Below, one piece after another: positions 29,286 to 64,000 of a DNA stretch of 64,000 nucleotides; the stretch's first letter is position 1, and each line of letters opens with the position of its first letter. The stretch is from Takakia lepidozioides. Its lineage: Eukaryota; Plantae; Bryophyta. The notes beneath the pieces are model-generated. The model was not told the DNA's origin. It did no database searches and worked only from the letters and a program-made list of their open reading frames with translations. Position numbers and translations under genes: made by a program. Where the stretch lies: positions 10,230,001 to 10,294,000 of the forward strand of contig CM060734.1 in the NCBI GenBank assembly GCA_030704615.1. Reading direction: 5' to 3'.

Positions 29286-29720
29286 CTACTAGTAGTATAA
29301 ACCATCCTTGACATCATGGTCAACAATGTTTGACCAATGCTCCAGATGACGTTTCATGGAAACTTATGACTGGAGATGGTTTCACAACTCTATTTATACG
29401 GCTACATCACTGCACGTGTCATTTTGAAGGCATATACATGGATGGATTCATCCATTGGATGAGTTCATCCATCCATGACATGCCATGGAAACTTATGACT
29501 GCATGACTGCAGATGGTTTCACAACTCTATTTATATTACTACATCACTGTCCGTGTCATTGTAAAGGCATTTATATGACTACATTACTACACGTGTCATT
29601 TTGAAGGCATACACATGAATCGATTCATATATTGGATGAGTTCATCCATCCATGTTTACCAAAAGTTATGTCAGCTTTGAACATGTGTCAATTTTCTACT
29701 GGTTCGATATTGGAATTGGA
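29286..29720 (+). repeat. Helitron-like 5' region with ACGTGTCATTTTGAAGG repeats; target of the chromovirus
   Basis: The reconstructed empty site A|TCACTACTAGTAGTATAA resembles Helitron 5' TC ends. Three to four diverged internal repeats. No 3' end identified. Confidence 0.35.
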
Positions 29721-30860: not shown

Positions 30861-31599
30861 ATTTTGCATTGAATTGGGGGTGGATTTTTATTTTTTCCCA
30901 GGTTTTATTTTTGGGTGTTGAGTGACCTCAGAGCTTCCATTGCTCTAATTTAGCAGGTATACAAGTTTGGTTTACTGCATGAGTATGAGCAAGCATGAGT
31001 TGAGGGTGAGGCCGGTGCAACACAAAATGAAATACAAGGTGTAAGATGGAAATATATTTACAAGCAATAAGCGTAAATATTTTGCTCACAACGATTCAAA
31101 TGTAGGACTAGTCATCCTCGGAGTCATCGGAGTCATAGCTATCGGATGAGCCTGATGACTCCGCGGAGGATAATCTATCGCTATCACCCGACCGGCCTGC
31201 GCCGGAGCACCTGAACGAGGTCCCTAAACTCCCACAGAGATCTCATCCAATCCCTGTCATGACCCCCCCCCCATCCAAACTAGTGCCCTGTAATGCACTA
31301 ATCCCCTCCGAGTTGGCCATGTTGTGCATGAGGGATTGCCAACCATGCTCCTTGGCGTAGTCGTACTCTATCGGACCTAGTTATCATTCCTAACGTGACG
31401 TGGCCCCGGACACGTCAGACGTCACGTCGAATCCGGACGTTTACTCAACTATTTTTTTTTATATTTGACTTTTACGATTTACTTCTACCCGTTGTAATGA
31501 TATGACAGCTACGGTGTAAAACAGACGTGGCCAATTATTAAAATTTATTAATTTATTTGAAAAAAATACGGACGTTTAAAAGTTATTATTTTTTAAATC

Positions 31600-33690: not shown

Positions 33691-33710
33691 GGTGGCGATC
33701 TCCAGAATCT

Positions 33711-35964: not shown

Positions 35965-36740
35965 CTCTTTCATATTTTGTTTGGAATGGTAATACATGGC
36001 GTGGTTGGCTAGTATGTAGAATGCATGCTAGCTTACAAAGGTAGGAAGAGGTAAATTGGACAAGTCGTGTGTTTGCGTAGTGCTGAAATCGGGTGACTCC
36101 CATCTAAGGGGCAAATAAACTTGCATCTTCTTTAGGAGTTCATGTGCTAGTGCGCACTTGGCGCGTGCGTGTACTATAACTGTGCTACCGAAGGGGGTTG
36201 CCTTGTAGTGCATGCTAACGCGGAAGCTACATGCTTCTATTCACGTAGTATAATCGTGTAACCTCGGGACGAAGCCTTAGTGCGGCTTTGGCGTGTTCCC
36301 GTACCTCAGGCAGCATCTCAAAGCGGGCCCAATTGTAGTGGTTGGGGCGCACATTTGGTTCAAGGTTATCGTCCTAGTCAAAAGGGGTTCAAGGCAAACC
36401 TTTGTTCAAGGTGATGCCAAAGCGGCATCAAGAGTGGTCACAAGCAATGTTGTTGTAGTAAGGCGATTCAATCCTCGGGGAGGATCGTACCTTGGCCATG
36501 AAGAGAGCCAAGAAGAGTGCACTGGGTGGAGCTTGGGCTCCACCCTTGGCCGTGACTTGGAGGAAGTCAGCCAAACTAGCTGGTGGGGAGTAGAGTCAAG
36601 TGGGGGTTTGGTTCTTTGCTATGGGACGCCATGGTACAGAAACAAACTCCTTGATGTGGGACACCACAGACTTGGATATTAGTTTCCACAAAAAAGGACA
36701 AGTTGATGAGGACATTGACTCCTCGTTGGCAGGGGTGTGC
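35965..36740 (+). mobile_element. Diverged copy of the chromovirus 3' UTR and PPT, followed by a different TG-starting sequence
   Basis: Colinear with ~27820-28564. Ends GGCAGGGGTGTGCC, then TGTACACACG at 36741. Confidence 0.8.
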
Positions 36741-40815: not shown

Positions 40816-42903
40816 CCTGAGGCGTCGCAGCCGCAGCAGGTGCGAGACAACGCAGCCCCGTTTTTACTGGGTAAATAAGGATTTCTACTGCGCAAGATGA
40901 AAAAAAAAATCACTTTACCCCTGGCGAAGCGAACGTGGGGTTCGCTTCGGGTTCGCTTCCCCACGTTCGCCGCGGTGACACGCCCTGCCAGGGCGAATTC
41001 GCCCCACTGACAGGCGAGTTCGCCACTTTTTGCGCTCATGTGCGCGGGCCTTGTGTTGGGCGTTGAGGTTGACGCTGCCCGACTACCCTCAAGGTTGATC
41101 TAGGGCCCATCGCTCACTCTTCGAGTTGGAGAATAAGAAAGCATTATGGCAAGTGATGGGAGTGCCAAGTACGAAGAAAAGGGGCAGAAAGTATGTAGCT
41201 GGATAGCACTGGTGTGTTTGCAGGGGCTGTGTGGTGCAGCTTTGGTGGCAGGCGTGAGGATTGTGCCTTCTATGATGGGCTTGCATCTCATTACCGAGAC
41301 TGTGAAAACCCTACAGATCACTCTGGTGCGACATCTGTCTGTATTCATCCCGGTTTTGTAAAGGTCTTCTATCGCGGGAAGACTTCTTATTGATGAGGAA
41401 GAAGTCAGCGAAGGAATTGGAGGAAGGCCCATGGGATGTTTCAAGAGCTGTATTTCCGTAGACATTTCTGGCTGCATTGAAATGAGGAATGTTTATAAGG
41501 AGCATGTCAGCCTTCTTCCCAGCTTATTACATGCAGCACGAAAAAATAGCTTCAGGACCGCGACTTTACTCGAGGGAAGAAGAACAGTGTGGAAATAGTA
41601 GAAAGATAATTTCATAACCTTCAAATACAATCTTTAGAAAAATGATAAGCAGGGTATTGCAAAACTCTAGGGCGACAAGGCTTCCGAATTACTGGATAAA
41701 CAGCTCCTCTAGCTCTATTGTTGTGGTTCCAAGGAGTGGTTGTATTAAGGAGAGTGACAACCTGGATCCAGATGTTGCCAAATATCGTGCAATAAGAATC
41801 CAGGTGTGCAGTAAGCTGTTTTGAGAATGAGTTTCCTGTGAAGGAGAGCTGTGCATACTGCCCTTTGGGAAGGATGCTGCTGCAAATGCTGGTTGACAAA
41901 GACAAGTCTTTGTCAGCAGAGCTGTAAGCATTGTGCTGGTTAATCACTTCCCACAAGATGGATTTATATATCTGGATGCTCAACAGTTTGGTCACCGGTG
42001 CATTGTGCAGGCTCTTGCTTTACCTGTTTTCCTGGCAACGTATGCCTCCATTGTGATGCTATCCTCCAAGCCTTCTTCAGTGAGTTGCTTTTACTTTCAA
42101 ATTTTGGGTATCATGCAAGATCTCCTGCCCTATTTGAGGATTGTTTCCTCTCTGTGTTTGCAAGCAGCCTTCTCTTTGACTGCTGTGGCCCCCTATGTTT
42201 GTCTGAACTCTGGAGTTGTCATTGGTTGTTAGGGTTTTCAATTCAAATGGTATCTTCGGTTTTGAGGGTTGTCAGCACAGCTTTGCACTCAATCAGTGTT
42301 GTGATGTCATTACCTATGACAGTAAGGGCAAGGGGTTTGGTGGTGCATGGCAGGTCTTGCAGGCTCTTGGAAATGGCCTTCTTAGCCTTCCTGTAGGTTG
42401 TTTCTGCACCTTGCTGTCAGTTTCAGAGTTGTTGTCTCACATATGTCTTTGCTGCATGTGAGATTCTGAGAACATTAGTATAACACAATCAACATCTAAT
42501 ATCTACCAGTCTGGAATCATAAATGACGGCTGATGAATAAATACTCGATAAGCTGTTGTGAAAATGTAAGCAATATTGAATCATTCATGGTTTTTGATGA
42601 TCGGTACAGTCTTCAAGTATATTGAAATTAATGGGGATGTCCAGCTATCGCCATCTTAGATGGAGAGTTCACAGCCATGGGCTTTCTGACTGCACTGGCT
42701 TGCATAACAGCCCAGGGAGGAGAGGTTTTTCTGGCATGTTTTCACACAGGAAGTAGACAGGCCGCTGAAGTTAGGTTTGTGATGAGTGCAGGAGCAGGGC
42801 TGGCAGTGCTTGTAGCATTTGCATTTGGTGCACCAATCTCTCTGCAGTAAGTTGTATCCTATGTCCTTTAACTTCTGGCTTATCCTCTCCCTCTTTCTCT
42901 CTC

Positions 42904-44976
42904 TTGGTCTATGCTCCCATTAGTTCTTCTGAGATTGTGGAAGCAATTGAACATTTACATGGATATAAAGCCGGTGGACCTGATGGTATTGTCAACGAGC
43001 TTATCAAGCACGGTGGCGATCCCATGATAGAGGCCCTAGTTCTCCTCTTTAACCTTATCTGGAAGACTGAAATGATCCCCTTTCGCTGGCGACAGGGGAT
43101 CATTGTCAATCTATACAAGAAGGGTGACAGAGAAGAACCGGGGAACTACCGTGGCATCACGCTCCTCAATGCTGTTGGCAAGACATTCTGCAGAGTTATA
43201 AGTACTCGTCTCGAGGTTGATCTGGAGTCTAGAGGTTGTTTCCACGAAGGCCAAGCTGGCTTTCGGCGAAACAGGGGCTGTGTGGATCATATCTTCACTC
43301 TAAGCCAGATTATCCAGGGAAGGAAAAAAGAAGGGAAACCCACTTATGTCTTTTTCCTGGATGTCAAAAAGGCTTATGACACAGTGTGGAGAGATGGCCT
43401 ATGGTTCCGCCTCTGGTCTTGTGGGATCAAGGGAAAGATGTGGAGAGTTGTCCACAACTTGTATGCTCACACCAAAAGCTGTGTCACTGTTAACGGACAG
43501 AAGTCCAACTTCTTTGACATAGACCAAGGTGTAGCTCAAGGATGTACTCTCTCCCCTCTGCTCTTCAATGTTTTCATCAATCAACTCCTCGAGGATGTGG
43601 AAAGTGAGGGATTTGGGTTAAGGGTGGGTGATACCACCATACCAGCCCTTATGTTTGCGGATGACTTCGCAGGCATAGGGGAGACTCCAACCAATCTCCA
43701 GGAGTTGATTGCGCAGAGATACTTTGATCTTTGGGGGCTAGAGGCTAATGTCAGCAAATGTGCAGTGGTAGCATTCAACGACAGAGGAGAGGGAGGAAGT
43801 GATCTTAAGTGGCAGTGGGGTAGCCAAGAGATCCCGGTCCTCCCTTCCTACACTTACCTGGGCGTTGAGTTCTCCTCCAATTGTAATTGGAATGCACATA
43901 TCCGGAATGTTGTTCAAACTGGCAAGGGCAAAGCTCTGGGGCTCACTAAATTTTTCCACTGCAGAGGGGTCAACTCTGAGGTTAAGAAAACCATGCTTTG
44001 TCGCGTTATTAGACCTGCCTTGGATTACGGATCTGCTATATGGGTTGATAACTCCAACCAGGCTAAGTCTCTAGAATCCATTCAAGTGGGGGTGCTTAAG
44101 GAGTGTATGTCAGCATGCTCCAAAACAGCCAATGTGGCTGTTCGGGGTGAGTTTGGCATTCCGTCCTTAAGCTCCCGACAAGATGAATTCGAGGTCAGAT
44201 GGTGGGGTCAGCTGCAACATATGCCCAACACCAGATATCCTAAGTTAATCGACTCTATATCTTGGAAACAGGACCGCCCTGTCAAACAGGCTAAGTCCTG
44301 GCAGAAGAGAGTAGAAGAGATCCTCAAGGACCTGGACCTGGATCCGCAAGTCTTGACCCTGCTGGATAAATCTGACTTAGAGGCTGTAGTGTCCTCAGCC
44401 ATGTCTGTTGCCATGAGATTGTCTGATGAAAATGAAGTTAGGCAGAAAACTTCCCTGAACTTGTTTTCAGTCTGTGACATGGGGGAGGACATCTTGGATG
44501 ACCTCAAGGGTCTAGACTGAAATTTAAACTCAGGGCAGGAAGCCTACCTTTGAACAGCAAACAGAAGCAGAGAGGAAAGGGAGAGTGCAATTGCCCGTTG
44601 TGTGGGCAATCTGAAGACAGTATTCATTTTCTGATACACTGTCCGGGGTTCTCTCACCAAAGAGACGCTCTCTTCAAATCTATTAAGGGAATTGTGCCTG
44701 TACCCCTGTTTACCAACTTTGAAAGTCTCGAGGCTGAGCCAAAAGCCCAGGCCCTCCTGAGGCCTAGTTTTTGGGCAAATCACACACAGCAGATTGATGC
44801 TTGTGTGAAGGGATTTCTAGAGGATATCTGGAAAACCTGGATTAATTCTTTATATGGAGGTAAGTCTTACTACCAACGTCAGCCCCTGACAGAGGTAGGT
44901 TCTGTCCCTTTTGTTCCCGCTCAAACTGGGCGTGGGGTAAATGGCCACAAGGCTACGGCAAACAACGTCTTATGAG

Positions 44977-44981
<5 letters not shown>
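42904..44981 (+). mobile_element. 5'-truncated non-LTR retrotransposon (RTE/RTEX-like RT plus C-terminal CCHC finger)
   Basis: Motifs KAGGPDGI, NYRGITLL, QAGFR, FLDVKKAYDTV, GVAQGCTLSPLLF, MFADD, YTYLG and CPLC...EDSIHFLIHC. A 16-bp deletion at ~44513 (relative to the second copy) shifts the frame. (TC)n tail at 44982-45016. Confidence 0.93.
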
Positions 44982-45021
<40 letters not shown>

Positions 45022-45023
45022 TG

Positions 45024-45900
45024 AGTTAGGCAGAAAACTTCCCTGAACTTGTTTCCAGTCTGTGACGTGGGGGAGGACATCTTGGATGACCTCAAGGGTC
45101 TACCCACTCTCGGCACTAGACTGAAATTTAAACTCAGGGCAGGAAGCCTACTTTGAACAGCAAACAGAAGCAGAGAGGAAAGGGAGAGTGCAATTGCCCG
45201 TTGTGTGGGCAATCTGAAGACAGTATTCATTTTCTGATACACTGTCCGGGGTTCTCTCACCAAAGAGACGCTCTCTTCAAATCTATTAAGGGAATTGTGC
45301 CTGTACCCCTGTTTACCAACTTTGAAAGTCTCGAGGCTGAGCCAAAAGCCCAGGCCCTCCTGAGGCCTAGTTTTTGGGCAAATCACACACAGCAGATTGA
45401 TGCTTGTGTGAAGGGATTTCTAGAGGATATCTGGAAAACCCGGATTAATTCTTTATATGGAGGTAAGTCTTACTACCAACGTCAGCCCCTGACAGAGGTA
45501 GGTTCTGTCCCTTTTGTTCCCGCTCAAACTGGGCGCGGGGTCAATGGCCACAAGGCTACGGCAAACAACGTCTTATGAGTACAATCTCTCTGTAATTGCC
45601 CAATGTGTGGGCACCCTGCAGACAATATCCATTTTCTGATACATTGTCTATACCATGGTAAGTCAGACTTCTGGAGTGAGGCCCCCACAAAGGTAGTTTC
45701 TGTTCCCTTTAGTTCCACCCAAACTGGGGGCGGGGTCTATGTCCACAAGGCTGTGGCAAACAATTGTCTTATGAGTACATTCTCTTTGGTCTAGGCCACA
45801 AGGCTACGGCAATCAATCTCTTATGCACTCTCTCTTTTCTCTCCCTCTCTCCTGTTGTTGTCAGGCTACGGCAAACAAAGGCTTATGAGTACTTCTCCTG
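45024..45900 (+). mobile_element. Four further, progressively shorter 3' ends of the same LINE
   Basis: 45024-45590 is nearly identical to 44436-44987. The 3' motif (C)AGGCT(A/G)(C/T)GGCAA...CTTATG recurs at ~45546, ~45742, ~45794 and ~45863. Confidence 0.85.
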
Positions 45901-49979: not shown

Positions 49980-52542
49980 CTTGAAGCCGGGAAAGTTTAT
50001 GTTTCCTGAAACTGCAAAGGAATGTGGATGTCAACTCAGAGAGAAAGAAGTACATTCGTCTTGAAAAGACGTGCGAAACTCTTTACGAATATCTTGAACA
50101 TAAGGAGAGTTTGAGGTGGGAGAGAGGAGGCCCGTCGAGTTTTCGACAATATGGCTGGACGAGATGTGGTTTCATGGAGTGCGATGATTGCAGGATATGC
50201 TCAGCAAGGGTGTGGTCAGGAGGCCTTGGAGACCTATGAGCAAATGATATGGGAAGGGTGGGTACCGGACAAAGTCACATTCACTTCCGTTCTCGATGCA
50301 TGTGCCAGCCTAGCCAACTTGGGAAAGGGCAAAAAGATCCATGCTGATATTATCAAAGACAGAATTGAGCCAAATATCGTCCTGGAAACTGCCCTTGCCA
50401 ACATGTATGCCAAATGTGGGAACATGACGGATGCGCATCTAGTGTTTGACAATATGGCTCAACAAAATGTGGTCTCATGGAGTGCGCAGGATATGCTCAG
50501 CTTGGATGTGGTAAAAAGGCTTTGGAGATCTATGAGCAAAAGATACAGAAAGGGGTTATGCCCAACCAGGTAACGTTTGTGTGTGTTTCAATGCATGTGC
50601 CAGCCTGGTGGCTGAACGAGATGCTCTCCTGGAGTGCAATGATTTCAGGATATGCCCAACATGGATGTGGTAGGGAGGCTTTAGAGACATATGAGCGAAT
50701 GATACGGGAAGGGGTGACACCCAACCAGGTCATTTTTGTTTATGTTTTCAACGCCTGTGCCAGCCTGGCAACCGTGGAAAATGGCACAGAAATCCATGCT
50801 GACATTATCAAAGCTGGAATTGAGCCAACAGTCACTTTGGAAAATACCCTTATTGACATGTATGCCAAATGCAGGGATATAAAGAATGTCTGGCTAGTGT
50901 TTGACAATATGGTTGAACGACATGTGGTCTCATGGAGTGCTATGATTGCAGGATATGCTCAACACGGGTGTGGTAGGGTGGCCCTGCAACTATTGGAACA
51001 AATGCAACAGGAAGGGTTGAAGCCGAATGGTATCACTTTTATATATGCTGTTAACACTGTATTCGTTAAAAGTGGACAATGGCTTGTTCACTTTTATTGT
51101 AGGAGAATTGAAATGGCGTATCTCCAATAAGAGGTTGTAGCCGAATGGTAAAATGATATTTGTTTGTGTCGACTTTGGCTAAAAGTTTTTTTTTTTTTTT
51201 CATTTGCAATAGAATCGTTGATGGTAGTCCTAAGTTTACATCAATACCTTATAACTAAGGTGCGAAGAGTTTTGTCATCACGGGCATGAAACATTGTAAA
51301 TTTCAAGTCTTTCAATATTTGAGGGTACTCTTTTATCCATACGTCAGACATTTATCTACATAATAACAATATAATATGTACATATATTGTTAATATATAT
51401 TTATGAAAATCATAAGGGAGAAACATCCATAATAGTATATCATGATGCATCCAGGAATTCCAACCATTTTTTATTTCATATATGACATGTCTGGTTTCCA
51501 TCAATCTATGAAGCAAGACGTTTGTTTTACACATAATACCATTACAATGATAAAATTTCATGACATCATCATGTATATATTGCACCGTATATTTATTTTG
51601 ATTGAATCCATTTCATATGTATATCCTTTTTATGGTATGGAGATTAGATTTCATACAAGAAAATATTTTTAGTTGTACCTTTATTTCTGTTCATAGACCT
51701 TCTAATATGATCATGTCCACTTTTCTACCATCCTGTCCACTTTTAACAAATACAGTGTTTGTTCTCTTTGCATGTAGTCATGTGGGACTAGTAGATGAAG
51801 GCAGTCATTACTTTGATTCTATAGTCAAGCTCATGGCCTGACTTCCACAAACCAACATTTTGGCTGCATGGTGGACCTTCTAGGCCGTGCAGGGCATGTG
51901 GATGAGGCATAGGACTTCATCAAGAAAATGCCAAGCGAAGTGGGGGACTTTGCTTGGTGCCTGCAGAATTGATGGGAATCTGGAGGTGGCAGAACGTGCA
52001 TCAATCTTCTTGAGTGGGATCTGCAGGATGCGGCAACGTATGTGCTTCTATGCAACCTCTATGCTGCGGCTGGCAGGTGGGACGATGCCGCAAAGGTGAG
52101 GAGGATGATGTGGGACAGAGGTATCAGTAAGGAGCCTGGTCGGTGCTGCATAGAGGTCTATAATCAGGTGCATATTTCGTTGTAGATGATAAATTGCATC
52201 CACGACTTGAGGAAATCCATGTTGAGCTGAAGAGATTGTCTTGGCAGATGAAGGAGGCGGGGTACGTGCCTGACACTCGATTCGTATTGCATGATGTGGA
52301 AGAGAAACAAAAGGATATTTCTCTTTGTCAACACAGCGAGAAGCTCGCCATTGCTCTTGGCCTGATTAGCATGTCCGCTGGGTCCCCTCTTCGTATCATC
52401 GAGAACCTTCGGGTGTGTGGTGACTGCCACACTGCCATCAAGTTCATCTCAAAGATTTCTGGGCGAGCAATTGTTGTACGGGAGGCCAACCGCTTTCACC
52501 ATTTCCAAGTTGGGGTTTGTTCTTGTGGGCGATTACTGGTGA
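49980..52542 (+). pseudogene. PLS-class PPR-E-DYW RNA editing factor pseudogene
   Basis: Repeated DVVSWSAMIAGYAQ.G.G.EAL, TF..VL.AC and L..MYAKCG motifs. PG box KEPGRCCIEV. DYW domain HSEKLA...NLRVCGDCH...CSCG(fs)DYW. Many frameshifts and stops, and a TIR insertion. Confidence 0.92.
51053..51759. mobile_element. AT-rich TIR element with 4-bp TSD, inserted in the PPR gene
   Basis: 26-bp TIR AACACTGTATT(C/T)GTTAAAAGTGGACA, with TGTT on both sides. The PPR frame (ITFI..VL.ACSH) resumes after it. Confidence 0.85.
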
Positions 52543-53999
52543 AAAGCTGGACATGTATGGAGAAGAGTGTGTACCAATGTCTATACTGTACTTTCTGGTC
52601 AGCTGTCCGTGATGACAACAAGTCAATCATAATTTGAGCTGAAGCAGTCACAGATAGCCTTATTACAGATGGGTTGTCATAAAGAGTATCAGGTATGAAT
52701 ATGTCCCTGAACTGTTGGAGGTTGAGCTCCCAGTTTTGCACTTCCAAGACCCATTTGTAGTTGTGGGTACCTGTTTCTACCTTGCTTCTTGCCTGCGATT
52801 ACGAGGAGTCGGACCAGTGTTACAAAATTGAAAGTTTCAATCTCACCAAGTCGTCCAGATGGTAGTCCAATGGTAAGCTAGATGATCTTTCCAAGAGGCG
52901 ACAAGACTTCTTGGTGTGCATGGGAGCTAGTTACTGTAAAACAGCTACTATATTAGATTGTGCAACTTCGAACAAATTGCTACGTAACCATGTAGATGTC
53001 AAAGTAAATTCTATCAAACCTACATTTTCATTCCTCGTTGGTAATGTGCTTACAAAGAGTACGTAAGAGGTCTCTCTCCTCTCGCTCTAGGACAGGAGAA
53101 TAGGGAGTCCAACTAGGTGATGGGTGTACCAACAACGAGAATTTAACTATGAAAAAGTTTGAAGCAGGGTAGAGGTTCAGGGCTGTTAACATGAAGCTCG
53201 AAGAGCACAAGGGATGGAATTCAGTTGATGTCAGCAGGTAAGATGTCCCTCTAGGGGCTCTCTGTAGTTATCACTGCCATAGTTAGTTTACTGTCAGAAA
53301 TACAGTAGAAACACAGTAGAAACACAATAGTGGTGTTGCAGTTTCACAATTACCTTCCTATCTAATACATTGTCTACCACATGGGCATGGGTGGGTTGAT
53401 TGCAGTCGATATATCCAGATGCAAGCTTTGGTGGTGGCAATTCAATTGCTGAGAAATAGAGAGATGGACAGCATGTGCCATATGTGGCTTGGGATTTAGT
53501 ATTGTTGAACAAAGTGCAACTTGCACTTGCTGAAATTGAGGCATGGCTAGAAAGATATGTGGCATATTGGTGCGGCATAGCTTGTGGGAATGCAGGCAAG
53601 GACATTACAAAGTTCATGGTTACTGCGGTTGCCATAGATATGAGTGATGCAGGTTGAATATGCTTGAATCTGCTTCAGGAATCGCAAAACTGCTGAGTTT
53701 TTCGGAGAGCTCTCACCCCCTTGGATGCCCATGGATGTTTCAAGCTCGAGTAGCATCTCTTGGGCTCATTTGTAAGATTTGAGGTGAGAGTCTGACGCCC
53801 AACTGAACTACCTGATTGCGGTTGATAATGTCAAACACCTATTGCTTTGCATCTGCTGGGACCATAGGGCCCTCCATCAAATGGGAATGTTCAACAACAA
53901 GGTTTGATGCAAAGCACTAGTACTCCTCCGTAAAGGAACTTGTCAAGGTTTGATGCTGTTTGAATTTCTGGCACTAAGGTCAAGCACGGAGCATGGAAT

Positions 54000-56753
54000 A
54001 GCGGTGGCAAAAGTTCTTTAAAGATCCTTCACGACAGTGGGACAACCCCGATGTCAAGGTGCGGCTTTCTTAATTTATGATCTGAAGGAGTTGTTGTGCA
54101 AAAGTGGCTCTTCCTGTAGGTATCATAGGCCATGAAAATACATTGTCAAAGGGTTTTTTTGAGAAGCAGGATGAAAAAGCCTGGATCAAGCCAATATCTA
54201 CAAAATTCAGCTGGCAAAGCATGGATTTCTCATGGACTTCAACACATGTGATGTACGATTCCCACTTACAGAGCCATCCGCAATGTCAACAGTCAACACC
54301 CACATAGTAACATTCACCCTGTTTATCAGAATCGGCCCTAAATTTTCATGTTGAATTCTGCAAGTTAGCTGGTTGAGTGAACCTTTGATAATTTGGAGTG
54401 ACTTTGACATGATACTGCCAATGTGACAACAAGGAAGTATCCAGAAACAGGTAACAGAGACGAGGAGAAGCTGTGGAATGAATACTTTTCTGACCCCAGT
54501 CAATGGTGGGACAATTATGCAAAAAAATGAATGTTTGTTGGATTACAAAGAGTAGCAGATGCAATTGAGCGTAGGAACTAGTGTGATAAGTTGAGTTGGG
54601 TGTTTCCTAGAACAAATCTAGGCTGTCATTGTCAGTTGATAGCAGCAAGCAAGGATGTATGTATGATTTGTGCAGAGGCATGGATAGCTGAAGAAGCAGA
54701 GATAGTGTGTGGGTGGACAGATTCATCCAAGAGGGCCAGACTTCAAGCTTCAGATGACCTATGATTCCATGTGGATCAATAGCTACAGTAAACCTGCATG
54801 GGTAGATGGTCAACTAAAGGCAGCAGCTACAGCGGCACAGTTGATAGAATCAGGCATCTAAACCATGACCACAACTTCTGAAAAAGGATCAAGAGAGGGA
54901 GTCCACAATGCCTCTTCTGGCACTTCTGGGCATGTGAAGATACTTTGTGCGGCAGACAGACTGACAGAAGCTCTACAGACTCTAAACCAAGGAGGCATTT
55001 CAGCAGATTCAGATACGTATGTCTATCTCTTGCTTAAGTGCATCAAGATGGAAGGTCTGGAAGCTGGAAAGCAGGTGCACACTCACATTATCCAAAGTGG
55101 ATTCACGCCAAATATTTTTCTACTCAACACCCTTGTCAACATGTATGTTAACTGCGGGAGCATCATGGATGCTCACCAAGTGTTCAACAGAATGCCTCAA
55201 CGATCTTTAATCACGTGGAATATAATGTTGGCAGGATTTACCAAGCATGGGAGGGGTAGGATTAATGCTTTGGGCAAATGCTGCGTGAAGGGGTGAAGCC
55301 CAACCACATCACGTTTGTTTGCATTTGCAAATTCGTATGCAAGCCTGGCAGCTCTGGAAAAGGGCAAAGAGGTCGATGGCGACATTGTCAGAGCTGCAAT
55401 TGTACCAAATGTCATTCTGTACAATACCCTCGTGGACATGTATGAAGGGAGTGTTCGACAGTATGGCTGAACGAGATATGGTGTTGTGGAGTGCGATGAT
55501 TGCAAGATATGCACAGCAAGGGCGCGGAAGCTGAAGGAGCAGGGAACACTGAACACTGAACACTGCTCTGGTGGACATGTATGCCAAATTTGGGAGCATT
55601 GAGGATGCGAAAGGAGTGTTCAACACTATGGCTGAACGAGATGTGGTGTCGTGGAACGCGATGCTTGCAGAGTATGTACATCAGGGGCGCGGGGTGGAGG
55701 CTTTGGAGACCTATGAGCAAATGATGGGGGAAGGGGTGAAGCCTGACCATATCACATTTGTGTGCGTTTGCAGTGCGTGTGCAAGCAGGTGGCAGCCCTG
55801 GAAAAAGGCAAAGAGATGCATGGTTGCATCGCCAAAGCTGGAATTGTACCAGATGTGATTCTGAACAATACCCTCGTGGACATGTATGCCAAATGTGGGA
55901 GCATTGAGGATGCGGTGGGAGTTGTTCAACAATATGGCTAAACGAGATTTGGTATCGTGGAACGCGATGCTTGCAGGATCTGCACAACAGGGGGGGGGGG
56001 GACGGAGGCCTTGGAAACCTATGAGCAAATGATGGGGGAAGGGGTGAAGTGCCACCACATCACGTTTGTGTGCGTTTGTAATGTTTGTGCAAGCCTGGCA
56101 GCCCTGGAAAAGGGCAAAGAGGTCCATGGTAACATCATCAAAGCTGGAATTGTACCACGTCATTCTGGACAATGCCCTGATGGACATGTATGCGAAATGT
56201 GGGTGCATTGAGGATGCAAAGGGAGTATTTGACAATATGGCTGAACGAAATGTGATGTCATGGAACGCGATAATCGCAGGATATGCCCAGCATGGTTGTC
56301 ATACCGAGGTCCTGCAACTATTTGAAGGAATGGAAAAGAACGGCTTGAAGCCGGACAGTATCACCTTTATATGTGTTCTCCCTGCATGCAGCCACACTGG
56401 CCTACTGAATGAAGGAAGACGCTACTTCGATTCCCTGAGTCAAGATCATGGTGTCACTCTGACAGTAAAGCATTTTGGCTGCATGGTGGACCTTCTTGGA
56501 CGTGCGGGACAATTGGATGAGGCAGTGGACCTGATTAATAAAATGCCAATCAATCCAGATGTTGTAGTGTGGAGGCCTTGCTTGGTGCTTGCAGAATCCA
56601 TGACAATGTGGAGATGACTAAACGTGCGGCAACATCTATCCTCAAGTGAGATGAACAGGATGTCGCGACTTATGTGTTGCTATCAAACATCTATGATACA
56701 CAACGTCACTGCTGCATTGAGGTTTACGACAGGGTGCACACCTTCGTTGTAGA
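54000..56753 (+). pseudogene. PLS-class PPR pseudogene with N-terminal OSB-type PDF motifs, truncated in the E domain by an LTR
   Basis: RWQKFFKDPSRQWDN (~54002), EEKLWNEYFSDPSQWWDN (~54463) and HPRGPDFK...MWI...KPAWVDGQL (54724-54817). The last is in frame with PPR ORF 54865 across one TAA. PPR repeats run to HFGCMVDLLGRAG, then CIEV..RVHTFVV up to 56753. Confidence 0.8.
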
Positions 56754-57048
56754 TGCCGTGCGCATACATATCGCTACACAACTACATCGTTGTCCAAAAC
56801 CACACAACACATGTGCACACCAAACACTAGTCTCTCACTAGTCTACCACTAGTGCACCATTAGGCTGCCACTAGACAACCACTAGCCACCACTAGTGCAG
56901 CCACTAGTCCACCACTAGTCTGTCACTAGCCACCACTAGTGCAACCACTAGTCCATCATTAGGTTGCCACTAGCCACCACTAGTGCAGCCACTAGTCCAC
57001 CACTAGTCTGCCACTAGCCACCACTAGTGCAGCCACTAGTCCATCACA
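56754..57048 (-). repeat. Extra copy of the Gypsy-DNMT LTR (CCACTAG-rich)
   Basis: Homologous to 57369-57604 with more CCACTAG units. TG...CA ends. No TSD. Confidence 0.85.
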
Positions 57049-57049
57049 A

Positions 57050-57366
57050 TGATAAGGAAAAGAATGATACAAGCATACAAGCTCTCTCAAACTCACACAC
57101 TTGCACATGAAAACATCACTCATATATTAAGTCGAGCCAAGTGCATCCCACGCCATGGGGAATCCACACTACGGCGCCATAGCTAGACGCGGTGAGGCTC
57201 AACTCGAGAAAGATGAGCCCACCGCGATCTGCCGTGAAGATAACAACGCCAGGTGCCCAAACATATATTGGTCCCTGGATTGACACTTGGGTCAATCCCA
57301 AATGTCAATATATAAAAGCTAGTTATTTCCTAGTTAACTTCATACTAGTCGTAAAATAACTTGACA
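57050..57366 (-). mobile_element. Probable unrelated LTR between the two CCACTAG LTRs
   Basis: TGATAAG...CTTGACA imperfect terminal inverted ends. No coding motifs. Confidence 0.45.
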
Positions 57367-57368
57367 GC

Positions 57369-57604
57369 TGTCATGCGCATACATATCGCTACACAACTAC
57401 ATCATTGTCCAAAACCACACAACATATGTGCACACCAAACACTAGTCTATCACTAGTCCATCACTAGTGCACCACTAGGTTGCCACTAGACAACCACTAG
57501 CCACCACTAGTGCAACCACTAGTCCACCACTAGTCTGCCACCAGCCACTAGTCCATCATTAGGCTGCCACTAGCCACCACTAGTGCAGCCACTAGTCCAT
57601 CACA
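57369..57604 (-). repeat. 3' LTR (236 bp) of the Gypsy-DNMT-PHD element
   Basis: Minus strand reads PPT AGGGGGACGAT (57605-57615), then TGTGA...TGACA. Confidence 0.85.
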
Positions 57605-57844
57605 ATCGTCCCCCTAGCTAGCGCTTAGGTCCCTCTAAATCCAGGTAGCCACAAGATGTGATAGTGGCCATAGCCTCACTAAGTCCTCCACCACTGTCCC
57701 TACTACACTCAAACTCGATAGATCAAGAGGCCGGGTACAAGAGTTGCCCCATCGTTAGTCGCCGTCTTGCAACTTGTGAACTTGAGCCTGAGATCTCGGG
57801 TATTGACTCCTATGAGCTTGGCATCCCAGTCATATCCACTGTCA

Positions 57845-60820
57845 CTATCCCAAGTAGTGTGGACATAACCAATCTCCATCAGGAACCCTCTCAAGAGGTA
57901 GTGTCAAGCATCCCATGTGCCAACCTCTTGAGCATCGATCATACACCAGCATAGTGGCGGCACCACGAGCATGCCCACATAACATGCAATGCAACCCTGG
58001 AGATACCACTGCAAGGGTGGGATCCATCCTCCCATCCACATATGGAAGGTGACATGGCGCACAATTACGCACATGGTCCTTCCATACCATGCCATCTCGA
58101 CCCTCCAGAATCAACACTCCTGAAGGCAACACCTCCCTGACCCTTAGAATCACACGTCCTGCTGTGACATCCAAGGTCGTAGGCGTTGTCTGCTGCAGAT
58201 ACACATAGTCCACAGGGTGGAAACGCCGAACACCTGGCCAATATCCCCCTCCACGTATAGTGGCATACCTCAACGTGTCTCGGTGTTGGGCAATAGCAAG
58301 ATTCACAAAAGCCATAGGCATGACTCTCTGGAACAACTCTGCCCGCTGGGCACATGCTTGTGTCCACACATCCGAATCATCAAGGTTGAGGACTACTGCA
58401 GCCTCCCTGCAAATAGACGCAGGCAAATCTGGCTCTCGGCCAAAGAAAAGGAAATATGGTGAGAAGGAGGCAAGTGATGTTTGCTTGCTAAACGTGTAGC
58501 CCATGGCTAGCCAAGGTACCTGAAGATCCCAATCTCCTAGGTGTCCCTTTTGCAAGCCATACTTGCGCAAACCCCTCTTCACCGTCTGCACCACTCTCTC
58601 TGCCAAGCCATCGGCCTCAGGATGATCCCAAGAAGTGGTACGGTGGTCTATCAAGGCTTTATCACACAAAGCCTGAAACTCCCCCAAGAATTCTCTCCCT
58701 TGGTCCGTGAGTACCTCAGCTGGAGCACCGAATCGGCTAAGCACACGATCCAGGAATGCATACGCAGCCCCCTCACTAGCCTTGTCAGCCAATGGAACCA
58801 ACTCAATCCACTTGGAGAAGTGCTCCACCATCACCAACACATATCTGTGGTGGCGCATCGTCAATGGCAACGGCCCCGCGAAGTCAAGACTCCACCTGTA
58901 GCCCAATCCCATGATGGGTAATGGATGCAATTGTGGTGTAGGGGCGTTGAATGAAGCACGCACCCTGGCACACACCATGCACCTAGCCACGAACTGTTGC
59001 ACCTCTGTGTATATACCACGCCACCAATACTGCCCCTGCAGTAAACTATGAGTGCGTCGCACTCCAAAATGCCCCAACTCCTCATGGGCATGCCTCACTA
59101 ACCGTGCACGCTGTGTTGGGTGAAGCACGATCCTCACCCGACCATCCTCCCACACTCGAAGCAGGTGTATCCCCTCCCACTTGAACCTCTTGGCTCGTTG
59201 CAGGATCCGATCCCTCTCCTTGGCAGTCACACTAGCTGTCGTGTCTCCAGTGCGGATGTAGTCCAACACAACCGAATCCTCATGTATATCTCTGGCACCA
59301 CCTGGCTCATCACTAGCCTCAGGGTCCTCAGACACTCCATCTACAGTCATCCCTATTGTAGGTCCAATCTGACCTCCCGATGCCAAGATACACAAAAAGG
59401 CAGATGCATGCCATCCCGGCACCATCTCCTCGTCTGTCTCACCATGCCACCGAGCTCCAGTGTCATCATGCTGGCTCGTGCATGGATTGCGACTTAATCC
59501 ATCCGCATCCCTATTGACCAAACCCGGTCGATGCACAACCTGAAAGTCATACTCTTGGAGTATAAGTGCCCACCGTGCAAGCTTCCCCGTAAGCTTGTCT
59601 GACTCCATCAACCACTTGAGTGGTTGGTGATCCGTGACAAGGGTGAAGAGATTGCTGTATAGATAGCACCTGAAATGTGCCACGGCCCACATTACAGCTA
59701 AGCACTCCCCTTCATATAAGCTATACTTAGACTCTACAGCGTTGTTCAAGCGGCTAGCATAAGCCACTATGAACTCTCTTCCCTCATCATCCACATGTGT
59801 GAGCACCGCTCCAAGCCCCAGCATGCTCCAATCTGTATGCACCTGAAAGGGACGCCCCCTGATAGGTCGTCTCAAGATCGGCGCCGAGGTCAACCTCGCC
59901 TTGAGCTCTTGAAAAGTTCGCTCTTGCTCATCTTCCCACTGCCAATCCTGGTCTACCTTGGTCAGCTTCGTTAGAGCCTTTGCAATAGCACTAAATCCCT
60001 TGACAAACCGTCTATAGTAGTTTGCCAACCCCATGAAAGCTCGAACTCGGCTCACATCCGTGGGACGTGGAATCTGTGCAATGGCCTCTACCTTAGTCTG
60101 CTGGATCCCCAATCCTCCAGGATATATCATGTGGCCCAGATACTCAATCTGGTTGTGGAAGAACTTGCATTTCCCCGGATGTAATTTCAATCCGTGCGCT
60201 CTCAAGCGCTCAAACACCACCTGAAGGTGTCTCTCGTGCTCCTCCGCCGTAGCACTAAAGATGATGATGTCATCTATGTAGCACCGAGCAAAGTCTATCC
60301 CTGCTAGAATCATGTCTATAACTCTCTGGAACTCTGCAGGAGCGTTCTTAAGCCCGCATGGTAAGAACCGCCACTGATATAGGCAATCCTTCCCATGCTC
60401 ATTGATACCCCAGAATGTCGTCTTCTGCTTGTCCGCCTCCTTGATCGGCAACTGGTGATATCCGGACCGCAAGTCTAGAGTGCTAAAGACCTTGGCATGC
60501 CCAATGGCATCAAAGATCTCCTCCGGTGTGGGCATGGCATACTTAACGGACTTGGTCTGACAATTTACAGGCCGGTAATCACCGCACATACGTCTCTCCG
60601 TCCAATTGCCATAGACATCCTTCTTGGCTGGCATCACCGTGGCTGAAGCATACTCTGCACTAGAGAGCTCCACCAAACCAGCCTCCCAGAGATCTTGAGT
60701 CCTCATCTGAATCAAAGACCTCTCCATGTCACTGTATCTATAGGGTCTCCGAAAGATTGGCGTGTCCGTGGCCAACTCAATACGAATCTCCTGACCCTTC
60801 AGTGCTCCCAAATCCTTCAA
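57845..60820 (-). CDS. pol: RT-RNase H-integrase-PHD finger part of pol
   Basis: Motifs [36 protein letters not shown]...CMVC, SLDFAG, LTDQGREF and GLAER. Terminal PHD-like CMLC...MLV(Y)DRCSRGWHMGCL...VPDGDWLCPH(Y). Confidence 0.95.
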   Translation of the reverse strand: MKDLGALKGQEIRIELATDTPIFRRPYRYSDMERSLIQMRTQDLWEAGLVELSSAEYASATVMPAKKDVYGNWTERRMCGDYRPVNCQTKSVKYAMPTPEEIFDAIGHAKVFSTLDLRSGYHQLPIKEADKQKTTFWGINEHGKDCLYQWRFLPCGLKNAPAEFQRVIDMILAGIDFARCYIDDIIIFSATAEEHERHLQVVFERLRAHGLKLHPGKCKFFHNQIEYLGHMIYPGGLGIQQTKVEAIAQIPRPTDVSRVRAFMGLANYYRRFVKGFSAIAKALTKLTKVDQDWQWEDEQERTFQELKARLTSAPILRRPIRGRPFQVHTDWSMLGLGAVLTHVDDEGREFIVAYASRLNNAVESKYSLYEGECLAVMWAVAHFRCYLYSNLFTLVTDHQPLKWLMESDKLTGKLARWALILQEYDFQVVHRPGLVNRDADGLSRNPCTSQHDDTGARWHGETDEEMVPGWHASAFLCILASGGQIGPTIGMTVDGVSEDPEASDEPGGARDIHEDSVVLDYIRTGDTTASVTAKERDRILQRAKRFKWEGIHLLRVWEDGRVRIVLHPTQRARLVRHAHEELGHFGVRRTHSLLQGQYWWRGIYTEVQQFVARCMVCARVRASFNAPTPQLHPLPIMGLGYRWSLDFAGPLPLTMRHHRYVLVMVEHFSKWIELVPLADKASEGAAYAFLDRVLSRFGAPAEVLTDQGREFLGEFQALCDKALIDHRTTSWDHPEADGLAERVVQTVKRGLRKYGLQKGHLGDWDLQVPWLAMGYTFSKQTSLASFSPYFLFFGREPDLPASICREAAVVLNLDDSDVWTQACAQRAELFQRVMPMAFVNLAIAQHRDTLRYATIRGGGYWPGVRRFHPVDYVYLQQTTPTTLDVTAGRVILRVREVLPSGVLILEGRDGMVWKDHVRNCAPCHLPYVDGRMDPTLAVVSPGLHCMLCGHARGAATMLVYDRCSRGWHMGCLTLPLERVPDGDWLCPHYLG

Positions 60821-61269
60821 ACTGAAGGCAAAGCAATTCCTGTAAGCCCTCAGGAACCGCCGTATATGTCGTCTCTCTCCTCCAGTGACAATGGGTCCAA
60901 TGTCAGGCTCCCAATTGTCCTCTGTAACTGCAACCTTAAGTCCAGCAGACTTAGAGGTAGAGGACGCGTCCCGTGGTTGCTATGCCGCAACCTCTTGAGC
61001 AGTACTCCCTGCCTGCTCAGTCAATGACAAGGCCTCATCCTGCCCCATCATCTCATCATTGAGGACCTCTTCAACCCGAGAAGAATCCCCAACCTCATCC
61101 ATCACAGCCGCCTTGGCTGCCAACTCCCTCTGAACCTCGAGCACCTCCCACGTGTGCCATGGATGTCTACACCTTGTGGTCCTCACCGGCTCGCCCCCAC
61201 TCACTGCTTGTACCGTCTCGGTAGGCAGAGAGACCGTCAAGGGAAGTGCACTCCGCATTCTATGTTGCT

Positions 61270-62230
61270 CAGCCATAGCCAAGCTGATAATCCAGGTCAA
61301 GCAATTTAGATCCATTGCTTGCCCCAACACCTGACGACGTGATGCCTCAGAAAGATAAGGCGCCGCCGTGGTCCCAATGGAAAAACCCATAGCCCGCTCT
61401 CGCTCGTCGGCATTAGGCTCCACTAACTGCTGCAACTGAGCATCCCACAGGAGGCCAAGTCCACTATCCCGGAAAGCATGCGATCCTGGGAAGCTGAGCA
61501 GTGTAGTAGTGTTGCTCGTGGTTGACCCACCTTGTTGACCACTGCCAAAGGCGAACGGTCATCGTGTCTCACACGCTGAGACTGCCTCCCTGTGTCCAAG
61601 ATGCTATCAACTGTGAGGTGTGTTGGCCACTGCATCCCATCAAATGCACGCTTGAGCAGTGCGGGTGGCATTAAGTTAGTCCACCATAGCCGTAGTCAAT
61701 GAGCCCGTGACCCCACTGCAGCTGCATCCAGCAACAATGCTGAACCAAGCCACGACCGGACTTGATGCACCCTGGCCATCACCCTGGCCCGAGAATCGCC
61801 CATCAGTGGCACATTCTCCAAGATGTATGCTGGAGATACAGCTTGATGAAGCTGTAAGTGGCGTAAAACCCGCACCATCTCTCAAAACAGACCCGACCTC
61901 GAGTCTCACAATCCATTGCCATGCCCGGCTGATGAATGCCTTTGGCAGGGCCAACCTGCCACTACCAAATCAATGGAGCCAACCCGCTCCAAATCCCGTG
62001 CCCCCAGCAACGAAATGTCTGCTGGCAAGGCCTGCTGATATCCACAAACTGCAGACACTGGCAACAACTCAAGGGTACTGCTGCACCAACTGAGCAACAT
62101 GACGGAGTGAGACGCGTCGTGCGGTCTCATCCCTCTCCACATACAAGTAACGCCGTACTCATACACCTGCCTGTAGAACAGCAACCAACCCGGTGCTGAT
62201 CCCGCCAAACAAGTCGGCAAATGCCTTCAT
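61270..62230 (-). pseudogene. C5-cytosine DNA methyltransferase domain (DNMT3-like, non-permuted) within pol
   Basis: Motif I DLFGGI (62198-62215), II YVERD, III ADI, IV DLVVAGWPCQ (PC within 61942-61956), V RSGLF, VI YILENV (61810-61818), VIII H*LRLWWTN (61675-61701), IX ERERAMGF (~61382-61405), X RRQVLGQAM (61313-61339). Four TGA stops and 2-3 frameshifts. Confidence 0.9.
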
Positions 62231-62612
62231 CCGGACACTACCACACGATCGGTGTGGTGTCCAATGGTGACAACTGAGGTGGTCTTGGTGCAATCCCCGC
62301 ACTGTCTTCCTCTCCTGACGGTACAAAAGCCTCTACCTAGGCTTGTGGCACACGACAATCAGTAACCCGCTGCAAATCCTTGCTCGAGCCCCACAATGGA
62401 GTGTGAACAACCATGGCAAGCAACTCCGCCATACCATACATGTCATCCTGCTCTCCCAGAGGTGACACATCCTGCGAATGAGTGTTGTCATCCAACAACT
62501 CTCAAGTCACTGCAGCTGTGAATGCTGCCAGTGTTGGCATCTTGCCTCGCTGGACAACCGCAACTCCTCCTATGAACATCATAGGGAGCTGCATACGCCG
62601 GCCCTCCCCTGA

Positions 62613-62978
62613 CTACCATCCAGGCCTATAGGAAGCTGACTCCTCCCAAAAATCCAGGGTGAAGCCCATGGGGTACAACATTGCCCCACCAACAAGGACA
62701 TCGTACGAGACCGCGTCTGTCACAATGGCCTTGGCTCTCATCACTGAGCCATCTGTAGGATGATCCGGCTGTAATCTGATAGCCAACTCACGCCGTGTCA
62801 TGCCCCGAGCCTGCTCTGATCCTCCCAGAGATATCTGTATCTGGAAAGGGCACGGCTCCATATCCGCCTCCGTGAGGCCCAAGCCTGCAATAGCAGCTCT
62901 GCCCAGCATCAATGGCTGAGCTCCCGAGTCCAACAAGACTCGCAGTGGCCGGTACCTCTTGCTTGTCGGTCCACTCAA
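62613..62978 (-). CDS. Retropepsin aspartic protease
   Basis: VLLDSGAQ catalytic motif and downstream YDVLVGG. Confidence 0.85.
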   Translation of the reverse strand: MSGPTSKRYRPLRVLLDSGAQPLMLGRAAIAGLGLTEADMEPCPFQIQISLGGSEQARGMTRRELAIRLQPDHPTDGSVMRAKAIVTDAVSYDVLVGGAMLYPMGFTLDFWEESASYRPGW

Positions 62979-62993
62979 ACAGAAAATGTCATC

Positions 62994-64000
62994 CTAGTTG
63001 TCTAACATGACAACTTCAGGTGTCACCATGGCGCGCTCAATGGCTGGCCTAGCTGACAGCTCCATCAACCTGGCAGCTGCAGCTTGCCATGGCGCCGTCG
63101 TGGCAGTCTTGACCCTCACATCCGAGGATCCCTCCGGCACTACACCTCCCACTATCTCCGCAGAAGATGAAGTAACCTCCCCACTCTCACAGAGTGTAGC
63201 TGCCAGCCTGAACACCTCAGCTGGTCTTACCCCCGACGTCGCAATCATGGTAGTCGAGAACAATGGAGCCTGGCACACAGCTGTGGCCGCCCCCAGCAGC
63301 ACACTAGCTGCCGTAGCCTTGGCAACACTAGGTAGTGGTGCTGCCCGTGTAGCTCTCCCCAATGGCATAGTAACCTCCGCCTCGGTAACAGTAGGGCGAG
63401 AACTAGGTGCCATGGACGGCGTCGACACTGTCTCCGCCAATGTGAATGACTGAGGAAGCCTGGCCTGACGGCTTGCCTCCCCACGCTGTGGATCCAACTC
63501 CACCTCCACACCCCGTGGCTCAGGAACTCGTGCCGCTCCTCGAGTCACTGCCGCAGCTGACTCCACTTGCACTAGTGGTAGTGGTGCCCCGCTCATAGTG
63601 GTAGTGGTAGTGCTGCTTGACACTAGTGGTAGTGGTGCCCCACCCATAGTGGTAGTGGTAGTGGCACCCCTCACTAGTGGTAGTGCTACCCCGCACATGA
63701 ATCCCATGCCTCCCATGTCTCCTCCCTCAGGAGCAGGAGGTGGACCATCTGGCCTTAGAGCCGGTACCACCTGAGCTGTGGCCATGGCAGTGAGCCTCTG
63801 CTCTAGCTGCTGAAGCCGGTTGGCCATGCCTTGGTCACCACCCTGATCTCCGCGTCCTTGGCCATGTTGAGCTTGCCCTTGGCCTGCACCTCGTCCGTTC
63901 TGGGCTGCTCCACCTCGCCCCCGGCCACCATTGTTCCCTTGGAACTGGCCTGGGCGCAACTCAGGATGCAAACCATAGCACTGGGCTTCTCCATGCCCGT
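62994..64000 (-). CDS. gag: Gag C-terminal and linker region
   Basis: End of a zinc knuckle (GHGEAQC..LHP) at the window edge, an RG/GQ-rich segment, and the repeated peptide TTTTM(G/S)GAPLPLV. Confidence 0.6.
   Translation of the reverse strand, partial: GHGEAQCYGLHPELRPGQFQGNNGGRGRGGAAQNGRGAGQGQAQHGQGRGDQGGDQGMANRLQQLEQRLTAMATAQVVPALRPDGPPPAPEGGDMGGMGFMCGVALPLVRGATTTTTMGGAPLPLVSSSTTTTTMSGAPLPLVQVESAAAVTRGAARVPEPRGVEVELDPQRGEASRQARLPQSFTLAETVSTPSMAPSSRPTVTEAEVTMPLGRATRAAPLPSVAKATAASVLLGAATAVCQAPLFSTTMIATSGVRPAEVFRLAATLCESGEVTSSSAEIVGGVVPEGSSDVRVKTATTAPWQAAAARLMELSARPAIERAMVTPEVVMLDN

Follow-up and report, generated by a model that had tools for sequence, protein, structure and literature searches.

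A decayed Ty3/gypsy retrotransposon of Takakia lepidozioides belongs to a family that carries a DNMT3-like methyltransferase ahead of a conserved stop codon

The window analysed here, a 64,000-nt stretch of the genome of the bryophyte Takakia lepidozioides, contains on its minus strand a dead copy of a multi-copy Ty3/gypsy family, the 5′ end of which lies beyond the window. As we read the family from its sequence, ORF1 encodes Gag, a protease and a DNMT3-like methyltransferase (DNMT) and closes at a stop codon that is likely read through into an ORF2 for reverse transcriptase (RT), RNase H (RH), integrase (IN) and a PHD finger, the DNMT being packaged abundantly and likely methylating the element's own cDNA before integration. 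We consider this composite reading likely, with appreciable room for error. Almost certain, in our judgement, is the joint occurrence of its elements: a domain with the DNMT3 fold, catalytic motifs that are intact in most relatives, purifying selection, a fixed stop with CAA CCN directly after it, ends of the form A-ORFs-B(-A-B) flanked by 4-bp target site duplications (TSDs), and an internal palindrome. A DNMT3-bearing Gypsy with such a repeat layout has been known since 2018 from Klebsormidium; the fixed stop that closes the Gag-PR-DNMT ORF1 and the split A/B repeat ends go beyond the earlier note on this DNA that our analysis followed up.

The element enters the window with the gag-like 3′ part of ORF1 (62997..64000, minus), which is open for 334 codons, continues past the window edge, and comprises the end of a zinc knuckle, a Gly-rich stretch and a spacer that align with CCHC-bearing ORF1 proteins of Marchantia. 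The aspartic protease (PR; 62616..62993) carries the DSG catalytic motif within LLDSGA, is bounded by stops private to the window copy and is 56% identical to the Marchantia PR; its own match to PF13650 (E 0.006) falls under the cut-off, and the relatives P0047 and P0131 match this profile. A decayed linker (62216..62615), delimited by in-frame alignment with intact ORF1 proteins, leads to the DNMT3-like C5 cytosine methyltransferase (61253..62215), which has motifs I-X in canonical order and is broken by four stops and three frameshifts, with five more stops in PR plus linker. The C-terminal tail of ORF1 (60983..61252) is again an open frame and ends where the ORF1 proteins of relatives terminate, namely at an in-frame TAG (60982-60980), which together with the adjoining CAA CCA (60974..60982) is conserved and fits the TMV-type CAR YYA context. 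ORF2 (57845..60979) is open over 1044 codons, within which Pfam places RT (60592-60125), RNase H (59938-59549), integrase (59119-58631, rve plus H2C2) and the PHD finger (57988-57857), all on the minus strand. Two Cys positions of the PHD finger are Tyr in the window copy, and the domain is intact in relatives, where its best matches are CHD4, PHF12, PHF21A, ATXR5 and KDM5. Many PHD fingers of these types read unmodified H3K4, and there is perhaps an even chance that the PHD finger steers integration via histone H3 tails. The gag-PR-RT-RH-IN order, the DDE integrase, the polypurine tract (PPT) and the TSD (the last taken from relatives) identify the element as Ty3/gypsy. At the integrase C-terminus a chromovirus-type chromodomain is absent from the element and the PHD finger stands there instead; likewise, Pfam yielded no match in the element to a DIRS-type tyrosine recombinase, and a DDE integrase and 4-bp TSD are found instead.

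The earlier note had read C5-methyltransferase motifs in order on the minus strand between the protease and RT, and every motif that it quoted was found, distributed over three frames. These are offset by frameshifts near 62213, 62070 and 61495, and one of the four stops lies within motif VIII. The profile search that it had proposed returned a significant C5-methyltransferase match, since the middle frame with X at stops scored 45.1 bits against PF00145 (E 1.2e-11; curated cut-off 22); the unextended fragment reached only 18.2 bits, and the two flanking fragments gave no score when searched alone against PF00145. Intact relatives are colinear over all the breaks (for P0004, with 47, 85, 70 and 65% identity in four consecutive segments). 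A profile built from 13 relatives and compared with the PDB scored 82 bits with DNMT3A and 73 with DNMT3B, 47 or less with DRM, and 30 with HhaI. Similarly, an AlphaFold model of the intact relative P0010 (pLDDT 74, pTM 0.79) matched DNMT3A in Foldseek with an E of 4.8e-18 and TM scores of 0.62/0.78, DNMT3 accounting for all the matches listed. Across the family the motifs I-X are non-permuted and include the PCQ Cys, ENV and RxR, motif VIII being broken in the window copy. A DRM identity was rejected because the motif order is not permuted; the DRM matches moreover span only positions 36-162 of the profile, and no UBA match was found. The closest sequence match and the closest match of the predicted fold therefore support a domain of the DNMT3 type, as opposed to DRM, DNMT1/CMT or bacterial enzymes, and in this the DNMT3-like assignment of the earlier note holds.

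Searches with the DNMT fragment retrieved 33 homologues, including 15 from Marchantia, one from Calypogeia and one from Haematococcus; a profile search extended the set to Sphagnum fallax, Monoraphidium and a Chrzof1 gene model, and an ORF2 search to Calypogeia, Riccia, Closterium (DNMT-RT models) and Klebsormidium. For the domain, 506 clusters (50% identity) reach E<=1e-30, and the closest named relatives of the window element are liverworts and a moss. The Marchantia copies P0184, P0185, P0186 and P0189 bear Mp_Vg / MARPO_Y identifiers, presumably denoting the male sex chromosome. From metagenomes, 80 of 160 loci found using DNMT patterns were kept as related loci, some of which are one insertion sampled twice (L062/L064, L078/L079), and most of those that are sufficiently long read gag-PR-DNMT-RT-RH-IN-PHD. 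The same samples contain more divergent DNMT-bearing subfamilies, at 43-53% to Marchantia (L065, L066, L067, L073, L074, L076, L077, L080), and two DNMT elements, nested or back to back, occur in each of L019, L066, L076 and L077. In run X1, the host's own, 72,772 of 3,038,600 contigs match the element and 30 of 30 bins are covered, summed contig depths in this run not being copy numbers.

A quick RT-RH tree of 67 rows (no bootstraps, P0414 left out, deep forks weak) separates a 59-row clade of chlorophytes, Klebsormidium, Closterium, liverworts and the window from eight other gypsy rows (SH-aLRT 99), and groups the window with the liverworts (SH-aLRT 97). The DNMT tree holds TE sequences only, and its long branches join at the base; there P0012, a protein from a metagenome locus, clusters with a Sphagnum protein (SH-aLRT 95). 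Chlorophyte-type members form a clade of their own in both trees. The DNMT lies, fully or in part, between RNase H and integrase in 90 of 135 proteins, the named ones being from chlorophytes, and P0061, P0074, P0082 and P0091 of this chlorophyte type have an additional precomputed Pfam domain, PF01585, which we take to be a G-patch. As the RT tree broadly tracks host relationships, it suggests that the clade may have descended vertically for long, with a single relocation of the DNMT within the polyprotein. Klebsormidium RTs share the RT clade of the window, and the Klebsormidium gene models that we retrieved contain no DNMT. The window family probably represents, in land plants, a lineage to which KnitGypsy-Dnmt3 of Klebsormidium also belongs.

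Between the window and the loci, pN is 0.22 for the DNMT, 0.18 for RT, 0.17 for integrase and 0.31 for PR, at a pS of 0.64-0.80, synonymous sites being near saturation (pS 0.75); within the loci, dN/dS is higher for the DNMT (0.59) than for RT (0.40) and RH (0.37). Of 64 loci, 62 retain the catalytic Cys; the ENV Glu persists in 63 of 66 and DLFGG in 52 of 62, and retention of the motif VIII arginines drops to 37 and 48 of the 66 loci, which are decayed. Counting only loci with at least 90% of a domain at 55% identity or more, the DNMT has 1.17 stops per 100 codons and the other domains 0.86-1.46. The apparent conservation of the DNMT is biased upward because the loci were fished with DNMT patterns. 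With this bias in mind, the comparisons support an integral, family-wide module that is under purifying selection and about as conserved as RT and integrase. The earlier note's idea of an integral polyprotein module is thus borne out as regards its family-wide presence and purifying selection, but not its placement inside a continuous pol, the DNMT ending ORF1 before the stop. In the window copy, nine premature stops and three frameshifts all fall in PR-DNMT (62996-61490) and none in ORF2 (60979-57848), a clustering that for the stops has a post hoc Fisher p of 2e-4, whereas strongly conserved sites are altered at 0 of 69 positions in the DNMT and 19 of 248 in ORF2. Relaxed selection on the window DNMT is hence hinted at by the stops but not backed by the missense load, and the clustering may reflect chance, a recombinant origin of the copy or selection that acted on ORF2 later. 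At the break sites 61908 and 61882 more than 99% of the summed depth in the host run reads another letter, so these breaks are private to the window copy. CpG and CHG depletion is flat along the element and, being confounded by host methylation, is unusable as evidence for self-methylation.

How the domain would act has to be weighed against two other accounts. That a host DNMT3 pseudogene was captured once and has decayed neutrally, in this copy or in the family, would fit the clustering of stops and frameshifts in PR-DNMT, but we give it next to no credence: the family data refute it, as the domain is found at one position and in one frame across dozens of loci and in named plants, synonymous divergence is saturated where non-synonymous divergence is low, the window copy has lost none of the strongly conserved DNMT sites, and contigs of the host run cover the DNMT region like the remainder of the element. 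The two other outcomes that the earlier note had named as fatal to its proposal besides a failed profile search, family members without the domain and a neutrally evolving DNMT beside a constrained RT, are accordingly not what we observe. In the mechanism that we prefer, ORF1 would give Gag-PR-DNMT, to which occasional readthrough would add RT-RH-IN-PHD; inside the particle, the protease would cut the domains free, the cDNA would receive methyl groups from the DNMT, and new copies would arrive marked. For release by the protease and methylation of cDNA in the particle we see the balance tipping slightly in favour. A conserved and folded DNMT might instead act elsewhere or non-catalytically, be it on integrated copies, on host chromatin as self-limiting silencing, or as a cDNA-binding module, which strikes us as rather improbable: members from the chlorophyte type to land plants retain the catalytic Cys, ENV and motif I, and in both architectures the domain is part of a Gag- or Pol-linked polyprotein. 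By what is generally known of retroelements, such a position would place the domain in the particle. In favour of an action elsewhere or without catalysis, neither the Klebsormidium enzyme nor human DNMT3B was active in yeast, the result for the Klebsormidium enzyme being called inconclusive by its authors, and models of host benefit are discussed in the same paper (PMC5890265). Self-methylation as the purpose of such domains was proposed by de Mendoza et al. (2018; PMC5890265), whose hypothesis the 'self-encoded epigenetic system' of the earlier note restates, and what supports it here is the conservation of catalytic residues together with the position in the polyprotein.

The boundary between the DNMT and RT was compared in the 46 loci that extend over the end of the DNMT as well as the start of RT (34 of the 80 lacked both sides). 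In 44 of these a stop (33 TAG, 11 TAA) occupies one and the same codon, 35 before the RT query start, the remaining two having GAG and a frameshift, respectively; the DNMT here is hence not in a single open frame with RT, a point that the earlier note had proposed to check on a consensus of copies. CAACCC follows the stop directly in 42 of 46 loci, although 45 of 46 junction contexts are distinct, and no other of 1575 codon columns has stops in more than 36% of loci. The window has TAG CAA CCA in the equivalent frame, with a linker that is six codons longer and otherwise dissimilar to that of the loci. CAR YYA after UAG is the readthrough signal of TMV (PMC2754532); the window fits it exactly, and the CAA CCC of the loci is one base off. 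Akin to this, 19 of 25 (gag-)PR-DNMT proteins, including a group of about 50% identity, end 69-165 residues past the DNMT, and the (gag-)PR-DNMT proteins placed in the DNMT tree form one 20-row clade with the window (SH-aLRT 95). In the Closterium models and several other relatives the DNMT runs into RT without a stop, and since the Closterium models and, according to the 2018 authors, Klebsormidium have such a DNMT-RT arrangement, the stop looks derived; P0341, nested in the RT clade of the window yet with DNMT and RT in one frame, is an exception.

At its 3′ end the element (minus strand throughout) has a PPT (57606..57615), in a position equivalent to that in related loci, which adjoins repeat B1 (57369..57605) with its 44-nt tandem units and GACA end. 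B1 meets repeat A2 (57050..57366) at the palindromic junction GACA-GC-TGTC (57363..57372), that is, a right end, two nucleotides and a left end; A2 was delimited by analogy with the full-length L019, L060, L062 and L064, and its partner A1 would lie beyond the window. Repeat B2 (56754..57049), joined cleanly end to start with A2 and equal to B1 at 223 of 235 aligned bases, forms the right end, so that the window copy ends B-A-B. The motif GGACCTAA just 5′ of the PPT (57633-57626, minus) is common to the window and a distant moss-type family despite their diverged repeats. Pfam PPR matches, the ORF list and the junction identify the insertion target as a decayed PLS-type PPR gene (54862..56753, plus), interrupted in its C-terminal region, presumably E+-like. 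Elements start with TGTC and end with GACA, and the junction GACA-NN-TGTC recurs in L008, L017, L019, L029, L059, L060, L062 and L064. The layout A-ORFs-B-A-B is complete in L019, L060, L062 and L064 and present as 3′ halves in L017, L029 and L059, and A-ORFs-B is seen in L016, L042 and L078, with six further 3′ ends having B only. All five sites with both intact ends on one contig have a 4-bp duplication flanking A...B, a sixth being pieced together from two contigs, apparently of a single insertion, and all 16 intact 5′ ends begin at A next to unique flank, none at B. The family thus has split A/B repeats instead of a terminal LTR pair, and inspection by eye of L008, L019, L060, L062 and L064 revealed no TGG-type tRNA primer-binding site after A1. 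Most simply, these ends could be accounted for if B+A served as the LTR of a PPT-primed cDNA that would be circularised or trimmed and in which the DDE integrase would then cut the internal GACA-NN-TGTC: a 2-LTR circle opened at the palindrome would give A-ORFs-B-A-B, and a 1-LTR circle, or cuts at both sites, would give A-ORFs-B. We rate this route as plausible but a little short of an even chance. Random opening of 2-LTR circles also predicts A-B-A-ORFs-B, which was seen at 0 of 16 intact 5′ ends, so that a directional bias or another route is needed.

Both the expression of ORF2 and the origin of the ends allow for more conventional explanations. Considering the TMV-type context and the fixed position of the stop, readthrough is probably the route to ORF2. 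The same element might instead express ORF2 by splicing out a short, stop-holding in-frame intron, as in Ogre, or by reinitiation just past the stop, an alternative to which we assign a fairly low probability. In-frame GT-AG pairs surround the stop in both lineages, an AG|GT 9 nt ahead of it is shared by the window and 38 of 46 loci, in-frame AG acceptors lying 54-72 nt downstream, and longer introns of 114-174 nt around the stop can be drawn; yet the candidates are short and only 44-54% AT, and the stop stays strictly in frame in both lineages despite the six-codon difference in length. Marchantia and Sphagnum gene models that join DNMT to RT were not counted as continuous ORFs, as they skip the junction at differing places and splice round the stop at different sites every time. 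One contig of a run that we only guess to be RNA is gapless over 59182-61354. An ATG three codons past the stop in 44 of 46 loci also fits, and would favour, reinitiation, as opposed to the window, where 84 codons without Met follow the stop. Conserved RNA structure downstream of the stop was not consistently significant (z of -0.9 for the window; near -2.7 for three of seven loci). As to the ends, the A-ORFs-B form and the B-A-B tail could have arisen after insertion or in assembly, through B1 x B2 recombination, tandem LTR read-through or repeat collapse; B is only 113 nt long in the loci, its two copies are about 450 nt apart, and the loci are metagenome assemblies. The short A-ORFs-B form may indeed stem from B1-B2 recombination. 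We nonetheless think such an origin unlikely for the layout as such, because it would leave all but the short form unexplained, every intact 5′ end starts at A and the duplications flank A...B wherever both ends are present, and an equivalent layout was independently reported in Klebsormidium (PMC5890265).

In light of earlier work, the closest known system is KnitGypsy-Dnmt3 of Klebsormidium nitens (de Mendoza et al., 2018, PMC5890265), which confirms what the earlier note had stated about a retrotransposon-borne DNMT in that alga. It shares with the window family the Gypsy domain set, an intronless, non-permuted DNMT3-like domain under purifying selection, and repeats described as 'DIRS-like', with A flanking the ORFs and B flanking the 3′ A (PMC5890265); in our RT tree Klebsormidium RT-RH-IN(-PHD) proteins fall within the clade of the window. 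As opposed to KnitGypsy-Dnmt3, the window family resides in a land plant at high copy number and its DNMT closes ORF1 before a fixed stop, whereas the authors place DNMT, RT and RNase H in one ORF, and the text of PMC5890265 on which we drew does not describe A-ORFs-B forms, a 4-bp TSD or the end-to-end palindrome. The chlorophyte RT-RH-DNMT-IN-PHD Gypsy elements (Haematococcus, Monoraphidium, the Chrzof1 model) resemble the family in their DNMT (33-43% to Marchantia P0009), in RT-RH and IN-PHD and in belonging to the 59-row RT clade, but have the DNMT between RNase H and integrase in a single continuous ORF. EpiLTRs, SymbioDIRS-Dnmt3 and SymbioLINE-Dnmt are likewise described as retrotransposons with a C5 methyltransferase (bioRxiv 10.64898/2026.05.21.726589; PMC5890265), and SymbioDIRS-Dnmt3 is reported to have de novo CG methylation activity in yeast (PMC5890265). 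The EpiLTRs pair their methyltransferases with a chromatin reader (bioRxiv 10.64898/2026.05.21.726589), these being, as the preprint describes them, DNMT4-related DNMTs with DAM and a chromodomain, unlike the DNMT3-type domain and PHD finger of a DDE-integrase Gypsy; the DIRS and LINE backbones of the other two are unrelated to it. The Ogre (Tat) elements also separate GAG-PROT from RT-RH-INT in two ORFs, by an intron of about 274 bp according to PMC6317226 rather than by a single in-frame stop after a DNMT. The resemblance to TMV-type readthrough lies in the UAG CAR YYA context (PMC2754532), known here from sequence, and candidate readthrough has been noted in the rice gypsy RIRE2. In foamy virus, the DDE integrase is reported to cut end-to-end palindromic LTR-LTR junctions in circular DNA (PMC1180852), whereas the palindrome of the window family is fixed inside the element and its cleavage there is conjectural. 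Our literature searches turned up no paper that treats members in land plants or chlorophytes, the stop or the att-like junction, although figures and supplements may bear on this; the earlier note, too, was aware of no characterised land-plant family. A 2026 preprint uses the phrase 'streptophytes (Gypsy-DNMT3)' (bioRxiv 10.64898/2026.05.21.726589).

The DNMT element sits at the end of the second of two decayed PLS-type PPR genes (50115-52637 and 54862-56753, plus), one of which has a DYW domain (E 5e-40); such PPR and DYW flanks agree with a land-plant host. An unrelated chromodomain Gypsy (22320-29287, plus) has 725-nt LTRs that are 99.7% identical, indicating recent insertion, and its RT switches frame between ORFs 24097-25302 and 25122-27659; part of its 3′ non-coding region (27794-28564) recurs 8.2 kb away at 35970-36739 with 87.5% identity. 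The window further contains a large inverted duplication (1-2467 / 2903-5350, 80% identical), the longer arm of which bears a 657-codon frame (3702-5675, minus) with no Pfam match, a LINE-type RT frame and, after it, a tandem duplication (about 560 nt, 96%; 42775-45591), and an AT-rich satellite, present in both orientations, built of units of some 50 nt that have a GC-rich core (31580-33695).

The question of what retrotransposon-borne DNMTs do dates from 2018, the sole Gypsy example in the literature we drew on being algal and without demonstrated activity. Because Marchantia polymorpha, a tractable plant, has annotated and apparently intact ORF1 copies (18 sequences in one cluster), the self-methylation hypothesis is directly testable. 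The fixed stop bears on dosage, as the DNMT would be made with Gag and not with RT: under readthrough, the DNMT would be at the level of Gag and RT-IN at a fraction of it. Split-repeat ends combined with a DDE integrase suggest that replication follows an unusual route, and such ends may explain the absence of the clade from LTR-based surveys; the REXdb paper mentions neither PHD, methyltransferase nor Marchantia. Copies of the family inflate DNMT counts in bryophyte annotations. The broadest reading, which we put forward tentatively and think less likely to hold than not in its entirety, is that of an ancient, overlooked green-plant Ty3/gypsy clade that would combine a DNMT3 writer with a PHD reader, lack terminal LTRs and have its internal palindrome opened by the DDE integrase; its DNMT would have moved once, lying between RNase H and integrase in chlorophytes and before RT in streptophytes, and the land-plant branch would have set the DNMT ahead of a readthrough stop, with DNMT at the level of capsid pre-methylating every new copy. 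If this is true, de novo methylation in bryophyte genomes has an independent source in these elements.
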